Below are positions 4,387-64,000 of a stretch of DNA of 64,000 nucleotides, piece by piece. Source of the stretch: Naegleria gruberi (taxonomy: Eukaryota); NCBI GenBank assembly GCA_000004985.1, contig GG738928.1. One strand, given 5' to 3'. The notes under the pieces were generated by a model. That model searched no databases. It was not told where the DNA came from and worked only from the letters and a program-made list of their open reading frames with translations. How positions within the stretch are numbered: position 1 is the stretch's first letter; the number at the start of each line of letters is the position of its first letter. The translations under genes and the position numbers were made by a program.

Positions 4387-7245
4387 TCAATCTTCATTAA
4401 TTCCAAATTGAAAGTCTTTTGAGGAACTATCTTTTGGTAGTGTGTCGAANNNNNNNNNNNNNNNNNNNNNNNNNNNNNNNNNNNNNNNNNNNNNNNNNNT
4501 TGAATATCTGAATAGGTTTGATAAAAATGTAGTATCACATGGACAACCACTGAGATTCAACTCATCCAGTGTCTGGAAGTACATGTACATAATATTAGAA
4601 AAAATTTTAGGAAATTCAATATTTGAAAGATCCAATGTTTTCAAACATGCAAATTCCTGTAAAAATGTTCTAAACGAATCACTGTAAATTGGATTGATAT
4701 CTGTACTCATATCACCTGTTATATTGTTCAATTTGACATTCTCAATGGAAGGGGAATAACTCAATGAATGAGCAATTGAAAAAAGAGCAGGTGGTGACTT
4801 GTTTCCAGTGAATTTGAATGTCTTCAGATTCTTCTTAGCTAGTAAGCTATCTCCAATTCTTTGTGTCCCTCTTTCTCCAATATCACAATGAGAAAGATCT
4901 AAATAGGTTAGATTAGGGCAGTTTTTCAATTTTTTCAAAAAATCGGCAAGATATGAGACACCGTTATCCCCAATCTTGTTGTTGCTAAAGTCTAATATTT
5001 TCAATGATGGAAAGTTAATATAGAATGAAGAGAGATCTGATCCTGTAATCTTTGAATCATGAAATATCAAGCTCTCTATTAATGCTCTTCTAGAATAATC
5101 ACTCTTAATAGAATAAAAGAATGTCTCAAAGTCTGCTCCTTTATCCTTTTCCTGATACTCGATATTCCAATGTTTGAGAATTATTGTACTAATTGGAAGG
5201 GATGATAATATTTTCGTCAAAACATCTTGGCAACCATTGAACCAACAAGTCTCCAAACATTTGCATTTAGAATATCTGCTAATCATTCCAGAAAGGAGAA
5301 TGAAATTATTTCTTTCAGCCATTTCACGAAGAGTTCTGCTCATCGACTTTTGTAAATATAATTGCATCCATGCGTCTTTCATCTCCTTTAAATAGTAAGG
5401 AAGTTTTGAAATTCTCCATTTTGAATTGCAAGCAATTTTCCATTCTTGTTCTGATGTAAGTTTTGGCAAATCTTCTAGAACTATGTGTTTTCTAAAATTT
5501 GTTGGAGGTTTTCCATGGTAGCCTTTTTGTAAACTACTCTGAATGCAGGATTTGAGTAGTTCAATAACACTATCATGAGTTTCAAATACATGGAGAGATG
5601 ACATTTCATTCAGTAACTTGAAGAAGGTTTTAAAGTCATTCATCTTTTCAATTTGGTTCAATTTTTCTATGAACGAATCTATGGATTGATAAGGCAATAT
5701 TCCACAATTTTCATTCATAAATTTAGAAATACTTTCAATAGAGTTAAAATCGGAAAAGATCTGGATAAAGTAAATGTGTAATGTGAGTTCTTTCAACCTC
5801 TTTCTGATACTTTTGAAAGAATAGGACACTCTGTCGTCATCAGTTACTTCAGCACATTGAAAATCTGCAATTTCCTTGTAGCTCTTCAAAATATTCTTAA
5901 CATATCTTGTCAAGAATTCTCTAACATAGATATCATACAAATCTTTCCAATCAAATTTTGAAAATGGAATTAGCATTACAAAGTTTAACAAATCTCCAAC
6001 TTTTTCTTTTGATCTTTCTTCACTTCTAATAAAGGAATCAATAGAGCTATTAATCAATTCACTAATCTCTGGAATTTCCTTAATCGCCTCGATCATCAAT
6101 CTGAAAAATCTCAAGCAAGCCATAAATGCATTGGTGGTCTTTTCTCTCTGATCAACCATTTGAAGCAAACAATTAGACATCAATCGAGGAAGAATTTCAA
6201 TAACTTGTTCTGGTGAAAAATCTATCTTTTTCGAATGGGAACTGGACAAATTAGCTAATGAAGATTTGGTAACGTGAAGAACCTTCTTGATATGAATTTC
6301 ATCATTTGTTTCTGTAAGGATTGGTATCCAGTGTGTAAATGAAGTTTTCTCTCTTGACATTCCTCTCACATTATAATTCATGAACGCTCTCAATGAAAGA
6401 ATATCCAGAGAGCAATATATAGAACATATTTCCAATGATTTTGCGTTTCTCTTTTTACAGTTAATTCCATAGCCAACAAGATCACTTGTTTTGGTAAAGA
6501 AGCAAACTGAATCTGAGTTGGCTAACACTTTCTCAACTTTACAATTCATTCTTTTGAAACCATCATCTTCCTCTCTAGATACAAATGGAGGAGAAGGTAA
6601 ATGATTAGAATGGCCAACTTTTCTATTAACATATGCTTTGGCATGTGACATTGACCATTCCTGAGCTGACAAGTATTCTTCCTTTTTTTCCTCAAAAGTC
6701 TTTGGATCCTGAATATTTGACAATACTCTAGTCACATCTGCTCCATCATATAAAAACGTTTGCAACTGCATCAAGATTGAATGAACAGAATAAATTGGTT
6801 TCCACTCCTCAAGAAAATCCAAACAAATCCTATCAGAATCGACCACATTAGGATGTTCCATCCTCGTACACAATCGAATAGTGGGCGCCTCCATTGGATA
6901 ATTCTCACTAAACTTGATCACTGCATGAAAAACCACACCATCATACATGGTATCTGAATTTCCTCGAATATTTACGTGCCACATCATGAAATCCCTCTCA
7001 TCATCCACCTGAAAATTCATCTCCCGATAAATATTCATTATTTTCAAATTATCGAGAGCCTTCTTCTTCTTGATCGGAGCTGGACATGCACTCACATGAC
7101 TCAGTGGATTTTCTTGAATGTATTTAAATTCGGAATATAATCTTTTCAAGGCTAAAATTGGAGAAGTTTTACAATGTTTGTAACTATTCGGATCTGAATT
7201 TGCTTTCGAACGTGCATTGGGCTTGATCTTTTGGTGTTGAGACAT
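4387..7245 (-). CDS. Ubiquitin-conjugating enzyme (UBC/E2) domain fused to a long C-terminal region ending in RNI-type leucine-rich repeats. The 3' end is interrupted by a 50-N scaffold gap (4450..4499).
   Basis: The N-terminus has the UBC fold motifs (...GNSDTMYDGVVFHAVIKF..YPMEAPTIRL.TRMEHPNVVDSDRICLDFLEEWKP.YSV.SIL..LQ) with the catalytic Cys retained. The C-terminus has repeated L..LDLS.N.IGD.G...L-type LRRs. ATG at 7245. Confidence 0.6.
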   Translation of the reverse strand: MSQHQKIKPNARSKANSDPNSYKHCKTSPILALKRLYSEFKYIQENPLSHVSACPAPIKKKKALDNLKIMNIYREMNFQVDDERDFMMWHVNIRGNSDTMYDGVVFHAVIKFSENYPMEAPTIRLCTRMEHPNVVDSDRICLDFLEEWKPIYSVHSILMQLQTFLYDGADVTRVLSNIQDPKTFEEKKEEYLSAQEWSMSHAKAYVNRKVGHSNHLPSPPFVSREEDDGFKRMNCKVEKVLANSDSVCFFTKTSDLVGYGINCKKRNAKSLEICSIYCSLDILSLRAFMNYNVRGMSREKTSFTHWIPILTETNDEIHIKKVLHVTKSSLANLSSSHSKKIDFSPEQVIEILPRLMSNCLLQMVDQREKTTNAFMACLRFFRLMIEAIKEIPEISELINSSIDSFIRSEERSKEKVGDLLNFVMLIPFSKFDWKDLYDIYVREFLTRYVKNILKSYKEIADFQCAEVTDDDRVSYSFKSIRKRLKELTLHIYFIQIFSDFNSIESISKFMNENCGILPYQSIDSFIEKLNQIEKMNDFKTFFKLLNEMSSLHVFETHDSVIELLKSCIQSSLQKGYHGKPPTNFRKHIVLEDLPKLTSEQEWKIACNSKWRISKLPYYLKEMKDAWMQLYLQKSMSRTLREMAERNNFILLSGMISRYSKCKCLETCWFNGCQDVLTKILSSLPISTIILKHWNIEYQEKDKGADFETFFYSIKSDYSRRALIESLIFHDSKITGSDLSSFYINFPSLKILDFSNNKIGDNGVSYLADFLKKLKNCPNLTYLDLSHCDIGERGTQRIGDSLLAKKNLKTFKFTGNKSPPALFSIAHSLSYSPSIENVKLNNITGDMSTDINPIYSDSFRTFLQEFACLKTLDLSNIEFPKIFSNIMYMYFQTLDELNLSGCPCDTTFLSNLFRYSXXXXXXXXXXXXXXXXXFDTLPKDSSSKDFQFGINED
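4450..4499. other. Assembly gap (50 N)
   Basis: Run of N. Confidence 1.
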
Positions 7246-29149: not shown

Positions 29150-31427
29150 ATGCCTTTAAATGCATCGAATGTATCCAACAGAAGTAAGGATGATGTGATC
29201 ATCGAGGATGGGTATACAGCATCTTCATCGTTATCGTCATCCTCATTATCGTTATTAAGGGCAGGTGATAGTAAAAGCTGCAGTAGCTGTTCAATAGAAG
29301 CAGCAACTCCATGGAAACAAGATACATCCTCATCATCAACATCAGATGACTTCATAATTCCTATTCGGAATGGTAGGAGCAACTCTCGCCAATTCATAAA
29401 AACACCATCCTTTTCATCCCTTTCAACAATAATAGATTCTTCACTTCCATCAACGCCTAAATCATTGCCTTCATCACCATCATCATTACAAAATCATCAA
29501 GAAGGAACAGAACCACCTCTTACTGATACTCTCCTAGTTAAATCGATGAGCGAATGTAAGAATGACATGGAGAGGGGCATGTTGAACATGTTGGCTGATA
29601 AGAAGAATCTTCAGAGATTGGTCGGAATTCTCTTCATCTTTGCCACTCTACAAAGTGTTCAACAAATGACACTCTATGAAAATTTATTGAATATTGCCTT
29701 TTTCCTTGTTCAGTGCCTTAATAATTATTTAAGACAAACTAATAATGATACAGCTCTCACCTATGAGGAATCATTCAAACATTTGGATAAAAGAGAAATT
29801 ATAAGAACTGTTTTTTCAATGGTCATGTACACTTTGAGAATGATGTATCTTCCCAAACACAAGATGATTTTCCTTCCAGTGCTTTTTATTTGGTTTGCAG
29901 GAGCTAACAAACTATATATCTACTCTACATTTTGGGGATTACTACCCACTTACTATGCTTCAGTGATGTATATATCGTTGGCTTGCTATTTTGGATTTTA
30001 TGAATTGTTAGAGAATGGGTACACTGAGACATTTCTAAATTTAATGATGGATTACTTTATTTTGGTGGCTGTGGTGTGGATGTGGACATATTATCTGGTT
30101 AATGTAACTGGATTCTTGAAACACAAAGTGGACAAACTGAAGGAAACAAGGAAACGTTTGGAAAGTGCTTTGGAAGCACGAAGTAGATTCATTGCACATG
30201 TGAGTCATGAATTCCGTTGTCCAATCATGTCCAGCATTGGGTGTTTAGAATTGTTGAAAGAAACTCCTCTGAATGAGAAACAAAATGATCTCGTAGATAC
30301 AATAGTTTCATCGAATAGTGTCATTCTTCTATTGATTGAAGACATTTTACAAATTGTTAAAATTGAACATGAAAGTAAGGGTGCAAAGAAGGAAGATACA
30401 AATATTCAACCTTTCAATATTTTCGAATCATTGAAATCGCTGAAAGGAATAATTTCTGGTTATGCTTCGAATTTTAAGGTTAAGCTTAATTTGGAAATTG
30501 ATGAAGGAATTAAGAACTTGACAGTTTTATCAAATCCTTCAAAGATCCATCAAATACTTTCTAATTTGCTGACGAATGCAGTGAAAGCATCAAAGAAAGA
30601 TGATGATGTTTGGCTTAAATGCAATATTTTGGAAAAGAAAGATGATGAAACTGTAAAGATTAGATTTACTTGTCAAGATTTTGGATGTGGAATTCCTCCT
30701 AATTTGTTGGAATCTATATTTGAACCCTTTGTACAATTGCAAAATAATTCACAATCAAAAGTACCTAGCTCTGGGCTAGGATTGACTACAGTATCTCATT
30801 TAATCAAGACATTGAATGGAACTATTAACGTTGAATCACAGGTTGGAATAGGAAGCTCATTTACAGTTGACTTGGCTTTTAAAATTGTTCCAAACGAGGT
30901 AAAATATAAAGTTCAAGAAAATGTTGTTGTAGAAGAAAAGAGATCGAAACTACACTTGAACGTTCACAAGAATTACTTGAACCTGATGTCACATTTAGAA
31001 GAAGGTGAAAAGGAAATGGAAGAAACTCCAAAATTCAATTCCAATGTTTTGATAGCTGAAGATAATCCAATCAATAGAAAAGTTATTGTAAAGATGATTA
31101 ATAGTATGGGAAGTGAAACTGATTTTGTTTGTGATGGAAAGGAATTGGTTGAAAAGTTTAATCCAAGCACTCACAAAGTTGTATTTACTGATATGGTAGG
31201 TAGCTCAAATTTCGTTTTTTAAGGTCTAATAACAATAATAGAATATGCCAAATATGAACGGATTAGAAGCAGCCAAGAAATTAAGAGAAAAATTTGGAAA
31301 TACTTTCAGGATTTATCTCTTGACAGGAAATGTCACAATTTCATTATCTGATGAAATTGGTGTGTTTGATGGAGTGTTAACTAAACCTTGTTCTAAACAG
31401 GATTTGAAAAAATGTTTGGAAAATTAG
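29150..31427 (+). CDS. Hybrid sensor histidine kinase. Domain order: Ser-rich N-terminus, polytopic membrane region, HisKA, HATPase_c, receiver. Two exons (29150..31195, 31242..31427); the 46-nt intron splits the receiver domain.
   Basis: H-box HVSHEFRCPIMSSIGCLELL. N/G boxes (LSNLLTNAVKAS; DFGCGIPP; GLGLTTVSHLIKTLNGT). Receiver motifs IAEDNPINRKV... and VVFTDM|NMPNMNGLEAAKKLRE span the GTAGGT...ATAG intron. Confidence 0.8.
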
Positions 31428-32147
31428 AAATTAGGATCCAACCTGTTGCTAAATAGTTTTAGATTTTCACAGTCTGTTTCATCCAATGCTGAACTGTACT
31501 ACGTAGTCACAATTCGACAGCCCTGATATTTCAAACTGATACTAAATGGATGTTTAACATCATGAGATAATTAATATAATAAATAATCCAAATAAAATTG
31601 AAATTGAAAAAGTGGAATATAATAATAATAATTTAATACTTTATATTAATATTTGTATTGAAGTACACAACTTGTGGACATTATCGAAATCATAAGTAAA
31701 TCTTCCACTTTCCAAATTAAAAGTTGTCTGCTAACTTCTTGAAACCAATCTATTGATGTTAATAGTGACTATAATCAATTACCACAGAACTTTCGTTTAC
31801 AATTTTCTATGGATTGTTGTTGATAACATGTTCTATTAATTGGTAAAAAGTTTTGTTGTATGTGATATTTGTAACATTTCAATTATTAATTTTGGACGGG
31901 AAGCCTGCCAGGAATATGGCGACTATCCCGCTACTTTGACTGTATGAACAGTGAAGGCAAGAGTTCTGGACGAATCTTGTTGTGTTCAAATAACAGGTTG
32001 TTGAAGAATTAAACAGGTTTGATCACCCCCTATTTATTGAACATTCGACATGTTGAATTACTTGATGCAAATTTTGGTTTGATAATTTTAGATCAAATCG
32101 AAATTGAAACTTCTGATTTTATTTACAATATTATATCGATTTGGTAT

Positions 32148-32381
32148 TTAACAACCTCCTCTCAGTCTCAACACTAAATGCACAGTTGAATCCTTTTGAA
32201 GATTGTAATCACTAACTGTTCTTCCATCTTCCAATTGTTTTCCTGCATAAATCAATCGTTGTTGATCTGATGGAATTCCCTCCTTATCAAATATCTTTTG
32301 TTTCAAATGTTCAACAGTATCATTCGATTCCATTTCAATTGTAATTGTCTTTCCAGTTAGGGTTTTTACAAAAAGTTGCAT
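32148..32381 (-). CDS. Divergent ubiquitin-like monomer (77 aa, ends RLRGGC)
   Basis: [76 protein letters not shown] has about 15 substitutions relative to canonical ubiquitin. ATG at 32381. Confidence 0.6.
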
Positions 32382-32582
32382 TCCTCCTCTCAATCTCAAT
32401 ACCAAATGAAGTGTTGAATCTTTTTGAATGCTATAATCATTAATAGTTCTTCCATCTTCTAATTGTTTACCTGCAAAGATGAGTCTTTGTTGATCGGATG
32501 GAATTCCTTCCTTATCTTGAACTTTTCTCTTGACATTTTCAATTGAGTCATTATGGAATTTCCCTTGAAAATCTTCAACAAT
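32382..32582 (-). pseudogene. In-frame, 5'-truncated second ubiquitin-like repeat directly upstream (relic of a polyubiquitin unit; no start codon, preceded by a stop)
   Basis: It translates to ...[67 protein letters not shown], fused in frame to the downstream MQLFVKT... unit. The first ~10 residues of the ubiquitin fold (MQIFVKTLTG) are missing. Confidence 0.5.
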
Positions 32583-33518
32583 TTAACTGAAACAATTCGA
32601 AGTATTTTTAGAAAAGTGTTCAAGTGTTGCTAACTTTTTTTAAGGACATGTTGAACAACTTTGTTTCACGACGCAAATTGTTGACTTGCTGTTCATTCAT
32701 TGTAACTGCAACCAGCAAAAAGCATCAAGAATTATCCTCTATGAATTTTCTTGATAGAAAGTGTTGATTTTCCTTCAAGTTTACTCGAATTGTTCTTTTC
32801 AGCATGCATCGTGTGATAAACAAGCTAGCACTTTTCGCTTGTGAAATCTATTTCCTGTTGTTCTTGTTCGAAATTAGTGATATTTTAAACTATTACAAAC
32901 TAACCATACAACCTCATTCCCATTTCATCATCAAGTAGTAAAGCGAGTGAAGTTTTTCTTGAATTCCACCATTAAGAACAAGGTAGGAAGGTAATCAATT
33001 CGAAGTACATGTTGTTTCAAATATTGGGGATTGGTTTAATCTGCATGTAAACTCGTATTCAAATCATATATGATGATTGTCCATGTGTACATGTCCACAT
33101 GAAGTGGTAATTTTTTAGTCAGTTATCAATTTATTAATCACACAAGTTTCAATGAGTTCCCATTCAATGGATTGAAGCTGATGTGATCATGACGGTTAAA
33201 AGAGAATATTGTAAACTAAATATCCTCCCTATTACAATAATCCCACTTTTGCTGTATCCTATTCGATAGTAAGATGCATTGGAAGAAACTGAGGTGTTAC
33301 CATTCCTCTTACTGACTTCTCAATAAGGTTGTTCCACAAATGTTCAACCAATTCAATTCTCAGAAAACCATTGAACTCTATTAAACTCCATTGTAACTGT
33401 TGTAATCTTATTCTTTAAAAATTGCTATAAATTCATATTACCATTCATTCAATCATTAAACAAATCAAAAAACAAATTCAACAGCTGAATAACTCAAAAA
33501 CTATTAAAATCTTAAGAA

Positions 33519-34055
33519 ATGACTGAACAAACTCACGAAGAATTATTCAACCAAAACATGTGTGGAAGTGGTTTGGCATTCAAGAAGGTAGTTCGTGAAT
33601 TATTCAACAATCGAATTGTTCCTGCTACTAAGAATCTTCAACAAGTCAATCCAAAGATGATCATCTTGTTGGATTGGGCTTCTCTTGCTGCATTGCCAAC
33701 TGAAACCAAGTACAAGTATGGTGATAGATTTGCTGAAGATACCTTGTTGAATAATTGTATCAAATTCTTAACCGAATGTCCAAGATTGAGCAATATGGGT
33801 GAAATTGGAAAGGTTTTCATCAAGGATCCTGATTGTAAGGATGCTTTCATGGGATTGGAAAAGTTGATTTTCAGAGTTGTTCACAATGCTGATAGTAAGG
33901 ATTCTTCTGGTTTCCTTGGCTATTCTTACAAGGTTAATGGTTCTGATTTCGTTGTCACTTTGGAATGCAATTTGACTCTTGTTATGAAGGTTGCCAATGA
34001 AAGACAAAGTCCATCTGCTGATTCAGAAGCTAAAAAGTTGATTAATGCTTTCTAA
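33519..34055 (+). CDS. Hypothetical protein, 178 aa
   Basis: Clean ATG ORF in a gene-like context. No recognisable family. Confidence 0.35.
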   Translation: MTEQTHEELFNQNMCGSGLAFKKVVRELFNNRIVPATKNLQQVNPKMIILLDWASLAALPTETKYKYGDRFAEDTLLNNCIKFLTECPRLSNMGEIGKVFIKDPDCKDAFMGLEKLIFRVVHNADSKDSSGFLGYSYKVNGSDFVVTLECNLTLVMKVANERQSPSADSEAKKLINAF

Positions 34056-35065
34056 TGATTTTTTAAATGGCATTACTTAATGAATCAATATTGATATCAA
34101 TAAAAACAAGCTTCTTTGTTGAATTTGTATTAAAGTGTAAAATCTGCAACAAAAGACTACAGCACCACAGGTTCCCAAGTTGTCTCCAACCTCAGCACTG
34201 ATGTGGCTCGACGATGCTTAACTTCTCAAATCGGACGGGATGAGGTGCATTCATCGTGATATGGCCGTAGCCATTCACATCCTTAATATTAAAGTTTATT
34301 AATATTGTAAAACGTATAATTCTATAATTGGAAATTTCATTCATTTGACTATCAGAAATTATTAACTTCGACATATATTGAATTTGCAATATTATTATCC
34401 TAAAAAAGAAAAGAATGATAGAAAGTTGTGTAATCTATTTTTAAAACTAGAGTGTTGAAGTCTTAATTTCCATATTGAAACTGTTGGTTAATTTAGAAAC
34501 CAATAAAACCACAATAACAAATACAATTTCTCTTTTCTCCTTTCCAAAACTATATTTTAGAGCTAATTATATTGAGTATTACAAATAGTTACCATTTAAT
34601 GGAACAACAGACCACTAAGTCAGTGAATCTCCCTAAGTAACTGGAAGATCCACTTACTACTGGTAAAGTAGTTGGGAATCGAGAGAGAGGATTTCTTAAA
34701 AAAGAAGTCAGCTCTCAACATATCCCGATAAGATGAACTGTATGTAATTCTTTTGCATATTTTGATAAGGAAATTAAAATTGTCTGACGTAATTTGTACG
34801 AAACCTGCAATTTTGAAATTCTTCAATAAGATTCCAATTCAAGAGCTGCCACAAAATGAAAAACAACCTGTTGAAAATAAATTTCTCTTTTAAAATCAAA
34901 TAAAAATTAAGAACTATCATATTTTATTAACACAGCTTCTTATGATAAAGGTTGTGTTAATAAAATTAGCTTAAACTGCAATAGCTCATAATAAATTAGT
35001 AAAAGATTTAATTTGAATTATCTTTATGAACTTTAGAGTATAAATTATAGTTTAATAAATTAATC

Positions 35066-36181
35066 TTAGTGTCTTGGACCGTAGTCTCTACTGTCTCTAG
35101 GACGAGATTCAAACTCATTACGAGATGATCCTTGATTGTTGTTCTTATTTGAATCATTGGTTGTTCTTCCATATGAAGGTCTATCAGAATAATTTCCATA
35201 AGATTGATGTCTGTCATAATATGCTCCTCCTCTATTGTTGTTGTTATTGTAAGAACGAGGTGGTGGAATTTCAATTTGATTTGAATTATCAGACACTCTA
35301 CCATAAGAAGATGTTGGACCATAATAGGATGAAGAATTATTTCTTGAATCAACTCTTCCATAGTGAGGTGAATTATTTTGTGGAGGAGGGTAAGGTTGAT
35401 ATCTATTATTATTATTGTTGGAATAGTGATAATCACGAGTTGATCGTGGATTTCTGTATGGTGATGATGGCCTAGAAGATGACGATCCATATCGATCTCG
35501 ATCATCTCGGAATGGAGGAGAAGGTGGAGAATAATTATCAGAGTGACGATGATGATCTGATCCATTGTTTCCTCCACGATGATAGTCATTATTATAGGAT
35601 GATGATCTGCTACTATCACGATCATTATCATAAGATCTTCTACCAGACATTGAACCTCCTCCTCTTGGTTCTCTTCCACCTCTTGGTCCTCGTTTCTTTA
35701 GCATCTTTATATAATCATCTCTCTTCATACCACCATCTTTTCCTCTTCCGTATTGTCTCCCTTCTACGAAACCTGTATCGATGGCAATTTTAAGAGCACG
35801 ATTATTTAATTTACATCCTCTACAATATTTAACGCATTCCTCTGCATCGGATCTGTGATAGAACTCAACAAAACAAAATCCACAAGGTGTTAACGTATTT
35901 CTATTTAAACCCATTACAACTCGCTTAACTTCTCCACATTTTTCAAACAATTCGTATATTTGCTCCTCCTTGGTATAAAAACTTAGATTTTCTACATAGA
36001 TTGTTGAAGATTGAGAAAGTGCCCTCTCGAAATCCTCTTCATTTCCGCCCTCATTTACATAGTGTTTTAATAAATATTCATATTCTCTCTTGCTTCCGTG
36101 AAAAAATTTTAAAGGATGATGAGCTTCGAGAAGATGAGCCATTTTTTTTGTATCTAAATTTTTATTCTTCCCCTTCAACAT
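35066..36181 (-). CDS. Nuclear cap-binding protein subunit 2 (CBP20/NCBP2) with a long RG/RS/Tyr/Asn-rich C-terminal extension. Alternative start at 36142 (MAHLL, A-rich leader).
   Basis: RRM block [52 protein letters not shown]....Y..G..L..R...[12 protein letters not shown] aligns to CBP20. The track's first codon is GTG. Confidence 0.8.
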
Positions 36182-36473
36182 TAATTCATCGAGCCTTCTT
36201 TGCACAAAGGAATATCAACACCACAAACATAGCTTAGCATAGCAGACAAAGAGGCTTTGACAGAGTTGTGGATTCTTTGCCATCACCCTTGACTAGACAT
36301 GGTACAAGAAAACATTTTGCACAACATTGGAATGCCCTTTGAAATGAATTATCATAACATACACACCATTAATACCTTACTGCCCTCTTATTGTGACAGG
36401 TCCATTTATCTATTGTTTATTGTCACAGCACAGTATGAGGACACAGTAATGAATTAACATCTTCTTTTAAAAA

Positions 36474-39400
36474 ATGCCTCAAGATAGAAGGGCCAACCTC
36501 TTGCTCTTGATTATCACAGTTATTTTGTGTTTCGCAGCAACGGCCGACTTGTCTAAGGGAATTTTAACGGAGGCAGAATATCAAACCTACATCTCCAATT
36601 CATGCCCTTCTAAGCCTCTCTCCACTGATGCTTGGTACTCTGAGGAAAGTAACTTGATAAATATTATTCTTGCGGGTGATAATTCAAAGCTTCCTCTGAT
36701 CTACCCTCAGGAGTATTCGACGAATAACACTATTGTAAGGGATGATATTCTCAATACAACTACAACAAGCAACTCTTCACCAGCAACAACAATATTACAA
36801 TCAGGAAACAATACAACAGTGAACAACTCCTCCTCAACAAGCAACACAACTATTACCATTATTCAAGGGTGGGATGATCTTCTCAAAGTTCTTAATGAGA
36901 CTTTGAAACCCAACGCTACCCTCGCTGATAACTCAACAAGTGGAAATAATAGTTCTCTAGGATCGAATGGTTCAATCATTTTTAATTCCACCAATTCACA
37001 AACAACTACTAATGGAAATGTACCTCTGTTGAATACTACCCTTAACTCAACCACAAACTCTAGCCCTTCTGTTGGAACAAATACAACAAATACTCAGTTA
37101 TCCTCCAATACAACCCCTAGTGTTATTTCGAATAGTACTGGTACAGCTTCGACAATCAATTCCACTAATGCTAACCTGAACACAGTGAATGGAACAAGCG
37201 GAAGTACAGAAATTGGTTCGACCTATGGATCCAACAGCACTTCTGGTCAAGGTAATAGCACAACCACGAACACGCCATTTGGTTCTAACTCTAATTCCAT
37301 AGGATCAACAATAGTAACTAACGGAACTGTTGCAGCCGGTGCAATTTCTAGTTCAACAGTAACCTCAAACGGTGGGTATGTTGGCTCCAATACCTCTGGT
37401 TCAATAAGCACAACTTCAACTGGATCTAATAGCCAAGGATTAGGATCTAGCTCCTCCACAAATGTCTCTGCTAATAATACTGCAACTGTTAGTGGACCTT
37501 CAAGTGGATTTAATTCTACTTCTGGGGCAACTTCTGGGGCAAACAACGGTTCCGTTACAACAAGTACTGGAACAAATGGTCAATCAACTACTGGAACAAG
37601 CTTAGGATCGACCTCCTCTAATGGTTCAAACAGTGGTTCAACTAATGGAACAAATACAGGTTCCGTTTCCACAAGTACTGGAACAAGTGGTTCCTCTTCA
37701 AGTGTTTCAACAAACTCAGGATCAACAAGCTCTTCTAACTCTGGTTCAACTAATGGAGCAAACACCGGATCAATTGGCGTTTCTAACTCTGGATCTTCTA
37801 TTGGAACAAATACTGGTTCTGGTTCAACAATCACTGGAACCAGTTCAGGTTCTTCAACTAGTTCTAACACCAATACAGGAAACAATAATGTCTCCAATTC
37901 TGGATTAAATGGTCAAGGAACAAATTCTACTTCAAGCTCCTCAGCTACTAACATTTCAGGTTCAAATAATACTGGATCAAGTAATCAAGGAAGTAATTCA
38001 GGATCCAGTTCTACTGGAACAAGTAGCACTTCAAGTACTGGATTAAATGGTAGCGTTTCTTCAGGTGGTTCTAACACTGGAACAAATGGAGTATCAAATA
38101 ATGGATCAGCAACTGGCATTGCTCCCAATGTCTCTGGAACAAGTGGTAGTTCCTCTTCAAGTGTTTCAAACACTGTCTCCTCAAACTCAGGTTCGAGTGC
38201 TAATAATACTTCAACTGTTAGTGGACCTTCAGCAGGATCTAATTCTACTTCTGGAACAACTTCTGGAGCAAACAGCGGTTCCGTTACAACAAGTACTGGA
38301 ACAAACGGTCAATCAAATTCTGGAGCTAGCTCAGGATCTACCTCCTCTGGCTCTTCAAGTGGTTCGAACAGTGGTCCTGGCTCTAATACTGGTACAAGTG
38401 ATACTAATACAGGGTCAACAAGCTCTTCTAACTCTGGTTCTTCGAGTGGAGCAAGTACTGGTTCAGGTTCTTCAACAAATTCTAACACTAATCCAGGAAA
38501 CAACAATGTCTCCAATTCTGGATTAAATGGTCAAGGAACAAATTCTGCTTTAGGCTCCTCAGCTACTAACATTTCAGGAGCAAGTAATACTGGACAAGTT
38601 CTACATCTCAAGCTCTGGATTAAGTAATTCAGGATCCAGTTCTACTGGATCAAGTAGCACTTCAAGTACTGGATTAAATGGTGGCTCTTCTACAGGTGGT
38701 TCTAACACTGGAACAAATGGAGTATCAAATAATGGATCAGCAACTGGCATTGCTCCCAATGTCTCTGGAACAAGTGGTAGTTCCTCTTCAAGTGTTTCAA
38801 ACACTGTCTCCGCAAGCTCAGGTTCGAGTGCTAATACTTCAACTGTTAGTGGACCTTCAGCAGGATCTAATTCTACTTCTGGAACAACTTCTGGAGCAAA
38901 CAGCGGTTCCGTTACAACAAGTACTGGAACAAACGGTCAATCAAATTCTGGAGCTAGCTCAGGATCTACCTCCTTTGGCTCTTCAAGTGGTTCTACCAAT
39001 GCTGGACCCAATTCTAGTAGTAATTCAACGGTCAGTGGTGGTTCTTCAAATGCATCTGGTTTTACAAGTACTGGACCGAATACTCAAGGTGGTTCATTAT
39101 CTGACTCCTCAAATACTGGAACTGCTAGCACTCCAAGTGCTGGATTAAGTAGTGGATCTTCTTCAGGTGGTTCTAACACTGGGACAAATGGAGCATCAAA
39201 TAATGTTTCTGGAACAAATGGTGGTTCATCTTCTAGTGTAACAAACAGTGGTTCTGGTTCTAATACTGGTATTAATACTGGAACAATTGGCGTTTCTAAC
39301 TCTGGATCTTCTATAGGAACTGGGGTAAATACTGGTGCTGGAGCAAGTTCAGGATCTTCAACAAATTCTAACATCAATACAGGAACCAATAGTGTCTCCA

Positions 39401-42130
39401 ATTCTGGATTAAATGGTCAAGGAACAAATTCTACTTCAAGCTCCTCAGCTACTAACATTTCAGGTTCAAGTTATACTGGTACAGGAGGTACTACCTCTTC
39501 AAGTTCTGGATTAAGTGGTGGTTCTTCGTCAGGTAATGCTATTACTGGATCAACAACTGGCAACACTGCAAATGTCTATGGAGGAAATGGTGTTATCAAT
39601 ACAGGATCAACCAGCACTGGAGCAAATACTGGTTTACCAAGCACAGGACCTTCAACTACTCAATCACTGGAACAATTGGTGTTATCAATTCAGGATCAAC
39701 GAGCTCTTCTAACTCTGGATCTTCGCCTGGAGCAAATACTGGTTCTGGTACAACAATCACTGGAACTAGTTCAGGATCTTCAACAAATTCTAACACTAAT
39801 ACAGGAACCAATAGTGTATCAGGTTCAAATACTAGTGGCTCTATCACAAGCCCATCCACTGTATCCACTAGCTCTTCTAACATTGGAACAAATACTGGTT
39901 CCGGTTCGAGTAATACTGGAACTTCTAGTAATGGATCAATTGTTTCAAATAGTGGCTCCACAAGTACTGAAACTACTAGCACCCCAAATACTGGATTAAA
40001 TGGTGGTTTTTATTCAGGTGGTTCCAACACTGGAACAAATGGAGTATCAAATAATGAATCAACAACTGGTATCACTACAAATGTTTCTGGAACAATTGGG
40101 GGTTCATCTTCTAGTGTATCAAATAGTGGTTCTGGTTCTAATACTGGTATTAATACTGGAACAATTGGCGCTTCTAACTCTGGATCTTCTATTGGAACAA
40201 ATAATGGTTCTGGTTCAACAATCACTGGAACCAGTTCAGGATCTTCAACTAGTTCTAACATCAATACAGGAAACAATAATGTCTCCAATTCTGGATTAAA
40301 TGGTCAAGGAACAAATTCTACTTCAAGCTCTTCAGCTACTAACATTTCGGGTTCAAGTAATACTGGTACAGGAGGTACTACCTCTTCAAGTTCTGGATTA
40401 AGTGGTGGTTCTTCTTCTGGTGGTTCTAACACTGGAACAACTGAATCAACAATTGGCAACACTGCAAATGTCTATGGAGGAAATGGTGTTATCAATACAG
40501 GATCAACCATTTCTGGAACAAACACTGGTTTACCAAGCACAGGAGCATCAACTACTTCAACAGGCAATCCTGGTTCTGGTTCAGCAAACACTGGAACCAC
40601 TTCAAACGGTTCTACCAATACAGGTACCACAATTAATAGTGGTTCAGGATCTACCAATACAGGTACCACAATTAATAGTGGTTCAGTATCTGGTTCTTCA
40701 ACAGGTTTAAACAACTCTGGTTCTTCAACAAATAACAGTAGCTCAACAATTTCTACCACAACAAACCCAGCCACTTCCAGTGGTTCAGGATCTTCAACAA
40801 ATTCTAACACTAATACAGGAAACAATAATGTCTCCAATTCTGGATCAAATGGTCAAGGAACAAATTCTGCTTCAAGCTCTTCAGCTACTAACATTTCAGG
40901 TTCAAATACTAGTGGTTCAAGCTCATCTTCTGGTTCTTCTAACACTGGAGCAAATACTGGATTAACAAGCACAGGACCATCCAATACTCCAACCAATAAT
41001 GGGGGTTCCTCTAATTCTGGGTCAAGCTCTAGTGGAACTAGTGGTTCAACTTCAGTTATTTTTGGAGCAACAAGCTCCTCCAATCCTAACTCTGGCTCTA
41101 ATACTGGTACAAGTGGTGATACCAATACAGGATCAACGAGCTCTTCTAACTCTGGATCTTCGACTGGGGCAAATACTGCTTCAAGCAATGCTGGATCAGG
41201 TACAAACAATGGAAACAATGGATCAACAAGTTCAAATAGCAATTCAACAAGTTATAGTGCTCTTGATACTCTTCGTAAAGAAATAGAACGATTAGTTACA
41301 GATATTATTGGGCGACCTGATCCAAACCTGCCAACACCAGATCTTCAAAAAGGAATAGACACACTTAAAAATGACATTCTTGGTGTCAAACCTGCCTCAC
41401 CGACTACTACTAGTCTACCACCAACTCAACAAACTCTAACAGCTCAATTAACAACTCACCAACATCAAACAATAATGTTACAAAACCTTCTAACAATACA
41501 AACACAACCACAACCCTTAACGCCTCAAAAAGCACAACCCCAACAAGGAACTCAACCACTACTTCGACTAGTGTATCAACCACAACAACCGATAGTACTT
41601 CCAATGCTATTCAGTCAAGTAATAGAAACAACAATGCTGGAAGTCCAATCAGATGTAAACAGAAATGTCCTGTTAGGTATGAACAGAAAGTGTGTATAAC
41701 CAAAAGAAAAACCAGTAGTTCTTCTTCTGTTGTTGCATCCAATATTGTTGCAGTCATGGCAGAGAACATTGCCACCATTAAGAATGGATCACCTGATGGG
41801 TTAATAATTGGTTTATCTGTTGCAGGAGGTGTGTTAGCAATTCTGTGTTGTACAGGATCGTCTATCATTGGATGTGTTCTGTACGCTAAGAGAAAGAGAA
41901 ATAATTTCTGGAATCTTTATGAAGATAAAAATGTCAGAATGCTTATGGAGGGTCACATTGATGAAAGTGCATATGCAGATGTTGAATTAGAGGATGATGA
42001 AGAATTTGATCCACTAGAAGCAAAATCTTCTTACTCTGGCTCTAATGAAGATGATTTCAAGTTTGACGAAGAATCAGAAGAATCTTCAGAATCAGATAAA
42101 CAAGAAGAAGAAATTGAATTTGAATATTAA
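36474..42130 (+). CDS. Giant mucin-like type I membrane protein. Domain order: signal peptide, ~1800 aa Ser/Thr/Gly/Asn-rich region built from higher-order tandem repeats, TM helix, acidic cytoplasmic tail. The reading frame breaks at about 38595, 39655 and 41400-41460 (indels or unrecognised introns).
   Basis: Signal peptide MPQDRRANLLLLIITVILCFAATA. The conserved block aattctggattaaatggtcaaggaacaaattct...gctactaacatttcagg recurs at about 37893, 38514, 39393, 40283 and 40833. The terminal segment 41690..42130 encodes the TM (GLIIGLSVAGGVLAILCCTGSSIIGCVLYA) and a D/E-rich tail in a frame that connects back through S/T/N-rich sequence. Confidence 0.5.
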
Positions 42131-55368: not shown

Positions 55369-56216
55369 CACCTAAATGGATTAGTAGTTTNTGATATGTT
55401 CAATAAAAATCAAACTTTCTACATTTTTCTTACAATATTAGACTTAATATATGGAATTTGTTAAAAGAAATAATGACTGTTTCAAATAATTGCATTCAAT
55501 ATTAAAATTACAATTGAAGAAATGTAAAATCACAATAAGACATTCACAATTCAAGCTCACCAACAAGTAACATTGTGAAAGTCAAAGAGAGTTGAGTTAC
55601 TAATTTCCCTATTTATAAAGGTGGAAAACAAGGTTTTTAATTGATACTTAGTATCAATTTTGATATAATTTCTCACAAGTTGGAAAATTACAGTTCTATT
55701 CATCTATTTTTCTATTTATGATACTAATATCCGGGAATGATGTATTTAAATTGTTGTACTGAAATTGGCACATAGGGTAGCTTACAATCGCTTGTAAAAC
55801 ATTCCACTCACTCGCAAGCAATTAAAACCAAATGAATCACTTCACAACTTTTTCAAAGAAATCAATTCAAATAAGCTCCATAATTTAAAAAACATCTTTC
55901 CTATGTGAAATTCTCCTACTCCTAGCTCTCATAGGATGAGTTCCAATATTTGGTCAAGTGGTTGTTGTCCTTAGTGAGAAGAAGGTTATTACTAATTTAG
56001 TTTATTGGTTATTGAAATTGTAATTTAACAATATTAAATATAAATATTATGATCTACTAAATCCACTACAAATACCAATTTTAGAATATAATTTCATTGC
56101 TCTAACCAATTATATCCACAACCCTTACATATTGAAATAACAAATATAAACACATTTACACACATGTTAAAATAGTTCAATAATAATTTCATCATGAAAA
56201 ACAATTATAGAACAAA

Positions 56217-56711
56217 TTATTTATTTTTTTTAAATAATTCTAAAATATTTTTAAAATAATAAAAAATTATTAAAATTAAATTTGGTAATAAAGATAATTT
56301 TACAAATATATTATTATTATAAACAGTTAAAAATAATAAATTATAAACATATAAATAACTAATTAAAGTAAATAAACCAATAAATAAATTTAAAATAAAT
56401 TTCTTATTAAAATAAAAAATATAAAATAATAAAATTAAAATTGAAATTATAAAATAAATAAAACTTTCAAGATGAAATTGTCTAACAAGTATTTTATCCA
56501 AACTTGGTAATAATTTTAAATTCATTGGTAATGGTTTTGTAAAATAAATTCCCAAAGTAAAAAATAAACTTGTAAAAAAGTGTAAAATCATGAATAAATA
56601 TTCTTTCATTAATATTTTTGTATTTCCTATTAAAAGATATAAAAATAATGTTAAATATATTAAAATAAATGATGAAAATGTAAATATTGAAAGACTTGTT
56701 ATGGAAAACAT
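56217..56711 (-). CDS. Putative small polytopic membrane protein (164 aa) encoded in an extremely AT-rich block (~10% GC); may be spurious
   Basis: ATG ORF made of very hydrophobic Phe/Leu/Ile/Tyr-rich segments. Composition alone can generate such ORFs. Confidence 0.25.
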   Translation of the reverse strand: MFSITSLSIFTFSSFILIYLTLFLYLLIGNTKILMKEYLFMILHFFTSLFFTLGIYFTKPLPMNLKLLPSLDKILVRQFHLESFIYFIISILILLFYIFYFNKKFILNLFIGLFTLISYLYVYNLLFLTVYNNNIFVKLSLLPNLILIIFYYFKNILELFKKNK

Positions 56712-57124
56712 TTTAAAAGATTATGATAATTATATATTATTAATGATGATGATGGTAATGATGGTATGAATGATATGATAACGATGGTGATGATTGTATT
56801 TTAATACTATAATAATTTAATCAGTGATGAAGTATGATGATTGTATAAATTATCTTTAGAGTCAAAGATGATATGATGTTCCGAATTTTTTTTAATATTA
56901 TTTTCATCAACAATCAAATTTTTCCATTTCATACAACAAACTTGAACCTTAATAATACTACAACAACAACTAGTGGCACAACAATCAAACATTCAATTTG
57001 TAATTCATTCATATTCTATCGATTGATTGATTAATTAATTCATACTATTTTATTATCATTTTACAAATATATACTACTACTACTATATATATATTAACTT
57101 GTTTACCATATATTTCCATTATAA

Positions 57125-58862
57125 TTAAAGATATTCTTGTAAAATAGATGGTTTAAAACGTATAACAATAACCGAAATATTATCAGTACTACCCTTATCA
57201 TAGGCTAATTCACGTAAAGTAATAGAGGCTTGAACAGGATCATTTTCATATCTGACACTTGTTACAACTTCCTCCTCACTAACATAATCCCATAAACCAT
57301 CACAAGCTACAACAATAAATTCATCTCTATCAAACATAAAATCCATAACCATTGTACTTGCATCTGATATAATATAGGGATGAAGTGATTTATCACCAAT
57401 TGCTCTCGTAATTGCTAAACATGCATTAACACGATTACCATATATAGTACCACCTGCATCTTTAACTCTTCTACGTTCATCAATTTCACTTGGTCTATGA
57501 TCAACTGTTAATCTAATAGGTTCACCACTTCTACATAATACAATTCTAGAATCACCTACATTACCAATATAGGCTATTTTTTCATCTATATATGGTATAT
57601 ATATAATTGAGGCTGTACTTCCATCTCTATCATTTCCTTTACATACATTTTCATTAATTTCTAAAAATGTTTCACGTATTAAAAGTGGAATTACTTCACG
57701 TTTTGAAAGTGAATGTAAACAAATTTCATCAATTGATTCTTCTGTTGTTTTTTGTTCTCTTTCTTTATATTTTAAATGTTCTCTCAATTTACATAATAAT
57801 AAATTACTCTTTTCAATAGCTAATTCAATCAATTCTGAATATCTCATTGTATATATTTCTTCTCTTTCTTTTTCATTTAATAATCCATAATAACTTTCTA
57901 TATTTATATTATTTAATATTGAACTTAAATCATATGAATCATTATATCCATTCTTATGAGAATTATTAGAATTATACATATTATGAGAATGATTCATATT
58001 AGAATTATTCATATTAACATCTAAATCTTGTAATAATTTCTTAATATCTAAAAATTGTTCATAAATATTTAATTTTTCCTTAAATAAAACATGTAAATGT
58101 TCAGAAACATATTTAGAAGTATTTGAACCAACATGTCCATCACTTGTTATCTAATTGAGCATAATCATGTTGTCTAAATGTTAATTCACATACAAGTGCA
58201 TCTTCCATTGTTGATCTTCTTCCTTGTTTTTCAGCATAACCTGATAATAACCAATCATTTTCTAATAATTCAGATTGAATAGGTTCAACACGTTGTTGAT
58301 TACCTTTGTTTTTTTGTGCACGTCTATCAGCCTTTCTTTGATTCCTTTGTGAAGCCATTCTTTCTATAGCTTCATAGGTTTGACTACTTGGTGATGATGA
58401 TTGTAATGTTGTATTATTACTACTAATCACTGTTATTGTTTGTGAATGTGTTGTTGTTGTTGGTGATGATGAAGAGGATGAAGAGGATGAAGAGGATGAT
58501 GAAGTAGATGAAGATGATGAGGCTACTGATGATAATGATAGATTTATATTTTTAGGCTTTGTTTTAGGTGAATCATCGGAAATTGTTGGTGAATCAATGA
58601 GTGGTGAATCACTATCCATTAATGATGATGATGAAGAAGAAGATGAATTAGTATCAATAGTTGTAACTGATGGAGAATCATCAGTAATAATAACATTATT
58701 TGGTGATTGATCAAATATTTCCTCATTATTATTCTTGTTATTAACTCCTTCCATTATATTAATAATGAGTGGTGATTTTGCATCGGCAGAATCTTCTATC
58801 AGTTGATTAAAATTTAAATTAATATTATCATTGTTGGGTCCTTTCTTTTTGCTTTCATTCAT
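57125..58862 (-). CDS. Protein phosphatase 2C (PP2C/PPM) with a long Ser-rich N-terminal extension. There is an apparent +1 frame break near 58140 between the ...RRSTMEDA... and DGHVG motifs.
   Basis: The upstream ORF ends ...GYAEKQGRRSTMEDALVCELTFRQHDYAQLDNK*. The downstream ORF, re-translated here in the +1 frame, begins DGHVGSNTSKYVSEHL... and continues through GNVGDSR and DG..D to the stop. The two ORFs are the two halves of one PP2C domain. Confidence 0.65.
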
Positions 58863-61319: not shown

Positions 61320-62552
61320 ATGGCTAAAAAGAAGAATAATAATAAGAATAAGAATTCAGCCTCTTCGGCAACAACACCAGTTTCACCAGTGAGTGAAGTC
61401 AGTGAGGATAATAGTATTGAAGAAACTGTTACATCATCAACAACAATGGAAGAGGAACAAACAGTATCAACAACAACTCAAGAATCTACAATTGATGAAG
61501 CCTCCACAATAACTTCTACCACTGAACAACAAGAAGAAGAAGAAGCCTCTGATAAAATTCAACAACCTGAAGAAGTAAATTCATCATCTACAACAACAGC
61601 CATTGTTACTGAAGGAATACCAACAACTAACACTGTTGAAACATCTGATTCTATTACTACTACTAATACTAATACTACTACTATTGATAATAACATTCCA
61701 ACAAGTAGTACAACAACAACAACAATTGAAGAAGAAGAAGAAAAAACAAATCAAAAAAGTGAAGAAGAAATTATAACAGAAGAAATTGAAAAATTAAAAG
61801 AAGATTTAACTGATCGTGTTAAAGTAGTAAGAGAAGAATTAGAATTACAATATGAAATTGAAATTAAAAAATTACAAATTGATCATCAAGAATCTTTAAA
61901 AAAACAATTAGATTTATATGAAAATAAGATTAATTCACTTGTTGAAACTCATAAATATGAAATTGAACAATTAAATGCTCAATTAAAACAAAAAGATGAA
62001 GAAAATTTAAATGAATTGGAAAATATTAAATTATTAGAAATTAAATTACAAGATCAATTAAATGAAAATAATTCTAAAGATTTAATAATTAATAATTTAA
62101 ATAATAATATTGAAAATTTAAATAATAATATTAATAATTTAAAAAATGAAATTGAAATTAAAAAATCTGAATTAAAAGAAAAAAATGAAAATTCAAATGA
62201 ATTAAATGAAACTATTAAAAAACATTTAGAAAAAATTCAAAATTTAGAAAGAGAAGAATTAAATTCATTACAAAAAATTAATCATTTAAATCAACAATTA
62301 AAAACAACAAGTGAAAAGAATTCTGAATATGAAAATAGAATTTTACAATTAGAAGAAGAATTAAAATCACAAAAAGAAAATGAAACAATTATTTTACATA
62401 AATATTATCATCATGCTTTATTAGCTGTAAAATTAACTTTATCAAATATTAATTTTTCAGTTCCAGATTTGTTAGATGATTGTATTAAAGAACAAGTTAA
62501 AGAAGAAGATTTAGATTCTTGGATTACAAAGAAATTAGAATTACAAAATTAA
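61320..62552 (+). CDS. Coiled-coil protein with a Ser/Thr/Glu-rich N-terminus, 410 aa
   Basis: ATG ORF. Long heptad-rich ELKEK/NNLNN segment. Extreme A/T third-position codon usage. Confidence 0.5.
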   Translation: MAKKKNNNKNKNSASSATTPVSPVSEVSEDNSIEETVTSSTTMEEEQTVSTTTQESTIDEASTITSTTEQQEEEEASDKIQQPEEVNSSSTTTAIVTEGIPTTNTVETSDSITTTNTNTTTIDNNIPTSSTTTTTIEEEEEKTNQKSEEEIITEEIEKLKEDLTDRVKVVREELELQYEIEIKKLQIDHQESLKKQLDLYENKINSLVETHKYEIEQLNAQLKQKDEENLNELENIKLLEIKLQDQLNENNSKDLIINNLNNNIENLNNNINNLKNEIEIKKSELKEKNENSNELNETIKKHLEKIQNLEREELNSLQKINHLNQQLKTTSEKNSEYENRILQLEEELKSQKENETIILHKYYHHALLAVKLTLSNINFSVPDLLDDCIKEQVKEEDLDSWITKKLELQN

Positions 62553-63144
62553 ATATTTTAATATTTATAATTATAAATAAAAAAAAACAATTTAAATTAT
62601 TAAATCATAATGTGTTTTAAATTGTTGTTGATGAAGAAGAATATTTCAAAAGTTTAAATTATTATTAAATAAATTATTAATCAATTTTATCGTTCATTTA
62701 TTTGATCATCAGATTCATAACCAGATAATTGATTTAATTGATTATTATTATTTGGAAGTATAATTTCATTTAAAATTGTATTTAATTGATATTTTAATTC
62801 ATCTTTAAATTGTTGTTGATTTATAATATTTGAATTATTATTTAAATTATTATTTAAATTATTTAATTTAAATTCAATTAAATGATTTAAAATATTTTTT
62901 AAAAAAGCATGATCATTTCCATGTAAAGAAATAAATAAATTATTAAATAATTCTAATAAATTATTATTTAAATCAATATTACTATATATATTAATTAAAG
63001 TACGTAACCATAAATCTAATTCATCTTGAGATGAACAACTCCATTCACTAATTTCACCATTTATAGTTTTAATTTCAAATCTAAATTTTAAATCATTATT
63101 TTCATTTTGTAATCTTTTTATACTTGTTATACTATTTATATCTA

Positions 63145-63990
63145 TTATATTATATTTGGAATTTGAATCATTTCTATAATATAATTTACTTCTTTTAATT
63201 TTAACTTTGGTTTTTTGATATCCAATTCCATTTTTACGTTTTTTAAATAAATTCCTTTTAAATCATATTTAATTATATTTTCATTTTTTTTAAAATTATT
63301 AAAATTATTATTATTTAAATTATTACTATTTATATTATTATTATTTATATTAATAATTGTATTTCTTGTTTGTTGTAAATTATTATCACTAATAGTTTGT
63401 CTATGAGTATTAAATTCATTATTTTTAATTTCCGTAATTGGAGATTGTGGTGATAAATTTTCAATTTTTAAAATTGCATTTGATCTTTTTTTAACTATTT
63501 TTTTATGTTCCTGTATTATCTTGTTATCTACTGCTTCATTTCCTATATTTGTAGATGAAGAAGATGGTGGTGATGAATATTCTTCTTCTTCTTCTTCTTC
63601 TTTTTGATTTAAATTTAAATAACTTGGTAAATTAGATGGAAAACTAGCAGATAAACGTGAATTATTTAAATTATTATTTAAAGATGATGATGATGGTAGT
63701 GATGAATTATTATGAATAACAGAAAGTACTTTTTTAACTTTTCTAATAATAATTGGATTATTACTTGTTGATGTTGATGATGATGTTATTAAATTAGTAT
63801 TAGTATTATTATCTATTGTATCATCATCATCATTATCTAATATTATTGTAGATGATGTTGTTATATTATTAGTATTATTTATATTATCATAATGTTGATT
63901 GTTATTATCATTGTTACTAGAAGAATGAGAATCTGTATGTTCTTCTTCTTCTTGTGTTATTAATTGTCTTGTTGTAATTGTATCATTCAT
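63145..63990 (-). CDS. Asn/Ser-rich low-complexity protein (281 aa); gene possibly incomplete or with further exons
   Basis: ATG at 63990. Poly-N/poly-E tracts; no recognisable domain. Confidence 0.35.
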   Translation of the reverse strand: MNDTITTRQLITQEEEEHTDSHSSSNNDNNNQHYDNINNTNNITTSSTIILDNDDDDTIDNNTNTNLITSSSTSTSNNPIIIRKVKKVLSVIHNNSSLPSSSSLNNNLNNSRLSASFPSNLPSYLNLNQKEEEEEEEYSSPPSSSSTNIGNEAVDNKIIQEHKKIVKKRSNAILKIENLSPQSPITEIKNNEFNTHRQTISDNNLQQTRNTIININNNNINSNNLNNNNFNNFKKNENIIKYDLKGIYLKNVKMELDIKKPKLKLKEVNYIIEMIQIPNII

Positions 63991-64000
63991 TTGTGTGTTT

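Follow-up and report, generated by a model that had tools for sequence, protein, structure and literature searches.

The feature at positions 32148-32585 of the window, a 64,000-nucleotide stretch of Naegleria gruberi contig GG738928.1, is a 5'-truncated copy of a diverged di-ubiquitin paralogue. An incomplete first ubiquitin unit is followed directly by an intact second unit, and we lean slightly toward the reading that this second unit is still able to yield a processed, conjugatable ubiquitin variant. By sequence comparison the locus belongs to a family of diverged polyubiquitin-like genes specific to Naegleria; its members are built from non-identical repeats and in N. gruberi are di-ubiquitins.

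Layout of the locus and identity of its ubiquitin units

The locus is encoded on the minus strand, and its span in minus-strand translation is exactly a stop-to-stop open frame bounded by a TAA at 32585..32583 and a second TAA at 32150..32148. Its parts, with the method by which each was recognized, are as follows:

32585..32553, minus: breakpoint region of 10 open codons that are not ubiquitin-like, with an in-frame TAA (32585..32583) at its 5' end (translation)
32552..32382, minus: unit 1 remnant, ubiquitin residues 20-76, open and without a start codon (translation, tblastn, Pfam)
32381..32151, minus: unit 2, an intact diverged ubiquitin of 76 residues plus a capping Cys77 (translation, tblastn, Pfam, exact-sequence look-up)
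32381..32379, minus: the ATG of unit 2 itself (translation)
32150..32148, minus: TAA stop after Cys77 (translation)
32123..32118, minus: AATAAA hexamer 25 nt past the stop, a possible polyadenylation signal (motif scan; weak evidence)

The remnant and unit 2 are contiguous and in frame, meeting at RLRGG/MQLF with no spacer, and the frame closes with GGC and the stop codon. There is no in-frame ATG between the stop at 32585..32583 and Met1 of unit 2, which agrees with the initial annotation of the upstream unit as in frame and lacking a start codon. An exact-sequence look-up identified unit 2 plus its Cys as the 77-aa annotated protein XP_002669369.1 (NAEGRDRAFT_44874, "predicted protein"), encoded on a 160,583-bp scaffold of N. 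gruberi NEG-M. Neighbouring ORFs of 690 and 178 aa also match N. gruberi entries exactly, and no mention was found in a literature search with the identifiers XP_002669369.1 and NAEGRDRAFT_44874.

Several other features surround the locus. The 178-aa ORF (33519-34055, plus strand, no Pfam match) is arranged head-to-head with the ubiquitin locus and clusters at 90% identity with five other N. gruberi proteins, the six being encoded on six different scaffolds. A complete 5S rRNA gene (34154-34272, minus strand; Rfam RF00001, 100.8 bits, model positions 1-120 of 120) is located upstream of the ubiquitin remnant, at a distance of 1.6 kb, and about 100 nt past the end of this ORF; the ORF and the rRNA gene may belong to one dispersed repeat unit. 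On the other side, a hybrid histidine kinase with HisKA, HATPase_c and receiver domains occupies 29150-31427 on the plus strand. A putative 46-nt phase-0 intron (GTAGGT...ATAG, 31196-31241) interrupts the receiver domain at Pfam profile position 50/51, and the deposited 690-aa kinase XP_002669337.1 is the unspliced ORF running into this intron. Further away, a 379-aa minus-strand ORF (35066-36205) combines one RRM (PF00076, E 2e-16), a region that we take to resemble CBP20, a subunit of the nuclear cap-binding protein, with a long tail rich in Arg, Ser, Gly and Asn. The region 36474-41000 contains a 717-aa Ser/Thr/Asn/Gly-rich plus-strand ORF with no Pfam match and has a raised G+C of 0.39-0.42 versus about 0.31 elsewhere. 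Recurrence of the reverse-strand peptide motif EPEMLVAEELEVEFVP at about 37.9, 39.4 and 40.3 kb suggests that this region contains long repeats, either internal or in tandem. Very low G+C is observed at 56001-58000 (0.21) and 62001-64000 (0.17) versus a window mean of about 0.31.

In sequence comparison both ubiquitin units match ubiquitin far beyond chance. Unit 2 (32381..32154) is 77.6% identical to Dictyostelium ubiquitin over residues 1-76 (tblastn, E 3e-38; 17/76 differences), and its match to PF00240 spans the entire 72-position profile (E 1.5e-31; 108 bits, cut-off 25.4). Relative to human ubiquitin 16 of the 76 positions differ, close to the initial count of about 15 substitutions, with the changes being I3L, L15I, V17M, P19S, S20N, I23V, N25H, V26L, A28Q, Q31F, P38S, F45Y, L56V, I61L, E64D and L67V. 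Unit 2 thus does not share the near-invariance of ubiquitin, which is about 96-100% identical across eukaryotes. The remnant (32552..32382) aligns with residues 20-76 of ubiquitin only (84% identity, E 2e-30, tblastn) and with PF00240 profile positions 18-72 of 72. Consequently, it lacks both beta1 and beta2; the loss of a first beta-strand that had been described is real but larger in extent, with residues 1-19 gone.

Despite these changes, the residues by which ubiquitin is recognized are all present in the sequence of unit 2. It retains all seven lysines (K6, K11, K27, K29, K33, K48 and K63), the L8/I44/H68/V70 and I36/L71/L73 patches, R42, R72, R74 and G75-G76, and the LRLRGG tail. With R72, the tail, the lysines and the patches all kept, unit 2 should be charged by E1 and conjugated like ubiquitin. 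Eight of its 16 substitutions, at positions 3, 15, 17, 23, 26, 56, 61 and 67, are presumably conservative swaps in the buried core. The best matches in a single-unit PDB search were all ubiquitin, and the first of these, 1C3T (named "1D8 ubiquitin"), which we take to be a core-redesigned ubiquitin variant, is consistent with such core swaps.

Other ubiquitin-like modifiers are poorer relatives. NEDD8/RUB1, ISG15 and FAT10 have the beta-grasp fold and a GG tail, with ISG15 and FAT10 each composed of two tandem domains. The comparison with NEDD8 that the initial annotation had proposed gave only 55% identity, against the 77.6% obtained with ubiquitin, and unit 2 has R72 where NEDD8 has A72; NEDD8 or another ubiquitin-like protein is thus ruled out. 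Unlike ISG15 and FAT10, the window locus retains an internal RLRGG/M junction, so its units would be expected to be cleaved apart.

The RLRGGC end of the protein was read correctly at the outset, where the extra Cys was named among its features. In polyubiquitin genes the last repeat is normally followed by one further codon for a variable residue, which is Cys in the polyubiquitin of Plasmodium (Vinckeia) (PMC10457151), and one of the intact N. gruberi paralogues described below likewise ends with GGC. Since an extra codon is usual and is Cys in some lineages, Cys77 is unremarkable and is an ordinary polyubiquitin capping codon.

A family of diverged ubiquitin repeats in Naegleria

XP_002669369.1 shares a 90%-identity cluster with two N. 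gruberi proteins named "polyubiquitin", both complete di-ubiquitins: XP_002678392.1 (152 aa; P0122) and XP_002681079.1 (153 aa, ending GGC; P0123). The window copy has the same unit-1 and unit-2 types as these proteins, at about 89-96% identity. Specifically, unit 2 is 95-96% identical to unit 2 of both, differing by just 3-4 conservative changes (N25H, M26L, I56V), while the remnant is 93% identical to unit 1 of P0122, its closest relative, and 89% identical to that of P0123. In contrast to the window copy, the first unit of both paralogues is complete and has a start codon. Because these diverged unit types are also found in intact paralogues, the substitutions of unit 2 are not local decay. 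The initial description of a decaying polyubiquitin therefore stands for the upstream unit, a 5'-truncated relic with neither a start codon nor a recoverable exon, and fails for unit 2, which is of a type maintained in a constrained family.

The N. gruberi family comprises at least five similar copies. A second homology search added two copies, located on other scaffolds and annotated with products that fall short of two units. These are P0138 (129 aa), in which residues 1-49 of unit 1 are joined to residues 5-76 of unit 2, and P0181 (115 aa). Their short products may reflect either genuine deletions or errors in the gene models.

Diverged genes with three units are present in N. fowleri (FDP41_001718; P0016) and N. 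lovaniensis (C9374_007316; P0004). Both resemble the window locus in being diverged and multi-unit; they differ from it in unit number and in location, with the two three-unit loci syntenic with each other and not with the window. Unit 3 of the N. fowleri gene (VFQX01000027.1, 4457-4790) has been disabled: a 24-nt direct duplication (at 4529 and 4571) shifts the frame, and there is also an in-frame TAA at codon 49, with the remainder of the unit still readable in another frame. The 202-aa N. fowleri product is called identically in two assemblies. In N. lovaniensis unit 3 is intact, with Arg in place of the initial Met and with a YYLL tail. Unit 2 of N. gruberi shares Y45, V56 and L61 with the last unit of the N. 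fowleri and N. lovaniensis genes, which is only suggestive of unit-by-unit orthology, as overall identities give no resolution.

Divergence at synonymous sites is high throughout the family. The window remnant and unit 2 differ with a pS of 0.66 (dS about 1.6) and a dN/dS of 0.083. Between N. fowleri and N. lovaniensis the corresponding values are pS 0.68 and dN/dS 0.037 for unit 1, and pS 0.48 and dN/dS 0.14 for unit 2. All pairs of window units with units of the other species give a pS of 0.5-0.78 and a dN/dS of 0-0.21, with 0 obtained where dS was saturated. Near-saturated synonymous sites together with a dN/dS of about 0.03-0.2 indicate that the family is old and constrained. Thus, long-term purifying selection acts on the family as a whole.

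This family exists beside canonical ubiquitin, which is present in the genus on the evidence of the N. fowleri canonical polyubiquitin (PDB 5VIX), a protein 96% identical to human ubiquitin (PMC7990177). The 5VIX entry ranks 7th in the single-unit PDB search. Canonical polyubiquitin, represented by yeast UBI4, human UBB/UBC and N. fowleri 5VIX, consists of 76-codon head-to-tail units joined as RLRGG/MQ with one cap codon, and the window locus shares this spacer-less arrangement with its single extra C-terminal codon, as well as all of the lysines, the recognition patches and the LRLRGG tail. The two window units are nevertheless 77% identical to each other (76.6% in nucleotides) and 79-84% identical to ubiquitin, versus 96% or more for canonical units, and nothing points to concerted homogenisation between them. 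The repeats of a polyubiquitin gene usually remain identical, whereas the pS between the remnant and unit 2 shows that these are not, and the first unit is incomplete, lacking an initiator Met.

Two other groups of non-canonical ubiquitins can be compared with the window locus. Ubiquitin variants encoded by ubiquitin pseudogenes (human UBBP4/UbKEKS) likewise come from diverged copies outside the canonical genes that keep the GG tail and may yield conjugatable variants (PMC7066184). The UBBP4 variants carry few residue changes, and expression and conjugation of these pseudogene-encoded proteins have been demonstrated experimentally (PMC7066184), whereas the window locus is known from its sequence. 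The UbS27a and UbL40 ubiquitins of protists such as Plasmodium, Giardia and others resemble the window units in diverging by 15% or more while keeping the fold and the hydrophobic patch (PMC10457151). These forms are single ubiquitins fused to ribosomal proteins, whereas the window locus is of the polyubiquitin type, among which diverged ubiquitin is considered rare (PMC10457151).

Origin of the truncation

The feature specific to the window copy is the loss of unit 1 codons 1-19. The nucleotide repeat formed by the two units (32155-32324 and 32383-32552) ends exactly at codon 20, position 32552. The missing codons could in principle be supplied by an upstream exon, which the initial annotation had named as a point to check, and no exon supplying residues 1-19 was found in the minus-strand frames from 32540 to 42000. 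Over these 9.5 kb the three minus-strand frames contain no 19-residue peptide resembling beta1-beta2 (at least 7 matches) and none of the motifs FVK, TLTG or MQ[IL]F. Only two usable AG acceptors (exon starts 32572 and 32563) are available between the in-frame stop and residue 20. Within 2 kb, 40 GT..AG joins would connect an ORF beginning with ATG to the ubiquitin frame; none uses a consensus donor, and all of them encode tiny peptides unrelated to ubiquitin.

An intact di-ubiquitin gene with its first 19 or so codons on an unrecognised exon would account for a remnant that is open and in frame, and Naegleria genes do have short introns, an example being the 46-nt GTAGGT..ATAG intron of the neighbouring kinase. 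This reading is set against the searches just described and against the in-frame TAA only 10 codons upstream of residue 20. Additionally, the annotated products of P0122 and P0123, judged here from proteins and not DNA, run as two complete units and so give no hint of an intron near residue 20. We consider a hidden exon very unlikely.

An assembly artefact, in which a mis-join or collapsed repeat only simulates a truncation, appears less likely still. At least five similar copies exist in this draft assembly and gaps do occur in the window, but the nearest of these are at 4450 and 45609, no N is present within 13 kb of the locus, and the sequence is continuous across the breakpoint with unique genes on both sides.

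The least probable origin that we considered is a processed retrocopy of a di-ubiquitin mRNA. Truncation at the 5' end is typical of such copies, and the fragment is bracketed by a direct repeat matching at 15 of 17 positions (32047-32063, GACATGTTGAAttACTT; 32645-32661, GACATGTTGAAcaACTT). This repeat is not significant relative to random flank pairs (P about 0.08), both of its copies lie some 90 nt beyond the ends of the homology, and no poly(A) tract follows the 3' end of the fragment. The poly(A) tract and target-site duplication expected of a processed retropseudogene are thus not in evidence.

Two further candidates were rejected. In-place decay of the missing 57 nt is not indicated by local alignment of the upstream 100 nt with the first 57 nt of a ubiquitin unit (P about 0.2). 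As for a transposon or other repeat at the breakpoint, self-BLAST and a repeat search show the internal unit repeat only. The simplest reading is that a partial duplication or rearrangement with its 5' boundary inside unit 1 gave rise to the copy.

Coding potential of the surviving unit and its significance

A partial duplication or rearrangement of this kind would have removed the promoter-proximal part of the gene along with the first 19 codons of unit 1. What is left of that unit would then be an untranslatable relic, and unit 2, with its own Met1, would have become a free-standing 77-codon ORF. If a unit 2 transcript is made, its product would be a precursor from which a deubiquitinase would clip the capping Cys77 to expose Gly76. 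The ubiquitin E1 should then charge the mature 76-residue variant, which would be conjugated as ubiquitin is. We infer the expression, processing and conjugation of this copy from its coding sequence, and we regard these as slightly on the probable side. Unit 2 carries no lesion, having its own ATG, a GG-Cys end and an AATAAA 25 nt past its stop, although the hexamer is weak evidence in an AT-rich window where it occurs 1.4 times per kb per strand.

The main competing view, which is a serious possibility although we would wager against it, is that the same 5'-truncated paralogue is a silent pseudogene over its entire length and that unit 2 is open because the truncation is recent. Several observations would fit such a locus. 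The original promoter was presumably lost together with the 5' end. The 170 nt of the remnant that precede the unit 2 ATG contain four out-of-frame ATGs, forming two overlapping pairs of short ORFs, which would impede translation of unit 2 if transcription begins upstream of the remnant. The non-coding remnant is still open over 57 codons, which suggests that there has been too little time for decay. Damage is also frequent in the family, as exemplified by P0138, P0181 and unit 3 of N. fowleri, so the window copy could simply be dead, and its annotation is a gene model only. Against silence, the lesion-free unit 2 has departed from the intact paralogues by no more than the few conservative differences listed above and keeps every functional residue as well as its terminal GG-Cys, with the downstream AATAAA adding weak evidence in the same direction. 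We consequently retain, with some reserve, the reading in which a truncated paralogue has a second unit that may still be productive.

The initial annotation had also raised the possibility of a neofunctionalised ubiquitin-like gene, and for the family such a role is possible. In its boldest and, in our estimate, improbable form, Naegleria would keep a genus-wide precursor of deliberately non-identical ubiquitin variants that are conjugated normally and read differently, constituting a built-in ubiquitin-variant code in which the window locus would be a single-variant gene derived by truncation. The unit 2 changes that would be relevant to such a code are Q31F, P38S, F45Y and E64D, most of them located on the face of the helix or within the core. 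If this were true, the window locus would deliver the distal variant only.

For the window copy itself the significance is mainly a detail of annotation: the remnant is best labelled a relic, and the 77-aa model should be regarded as possibly a pseudogene. In evolutionary terms the family is modestly interesting, as non-identical units are maintained under purifying selection beside canonical ubiquitin while units and copies have been lost repeatedly. Constrained, non-identical units combined with repeated losses make this family a natural test of how much change ubiquitin can tolerate while still being useful.
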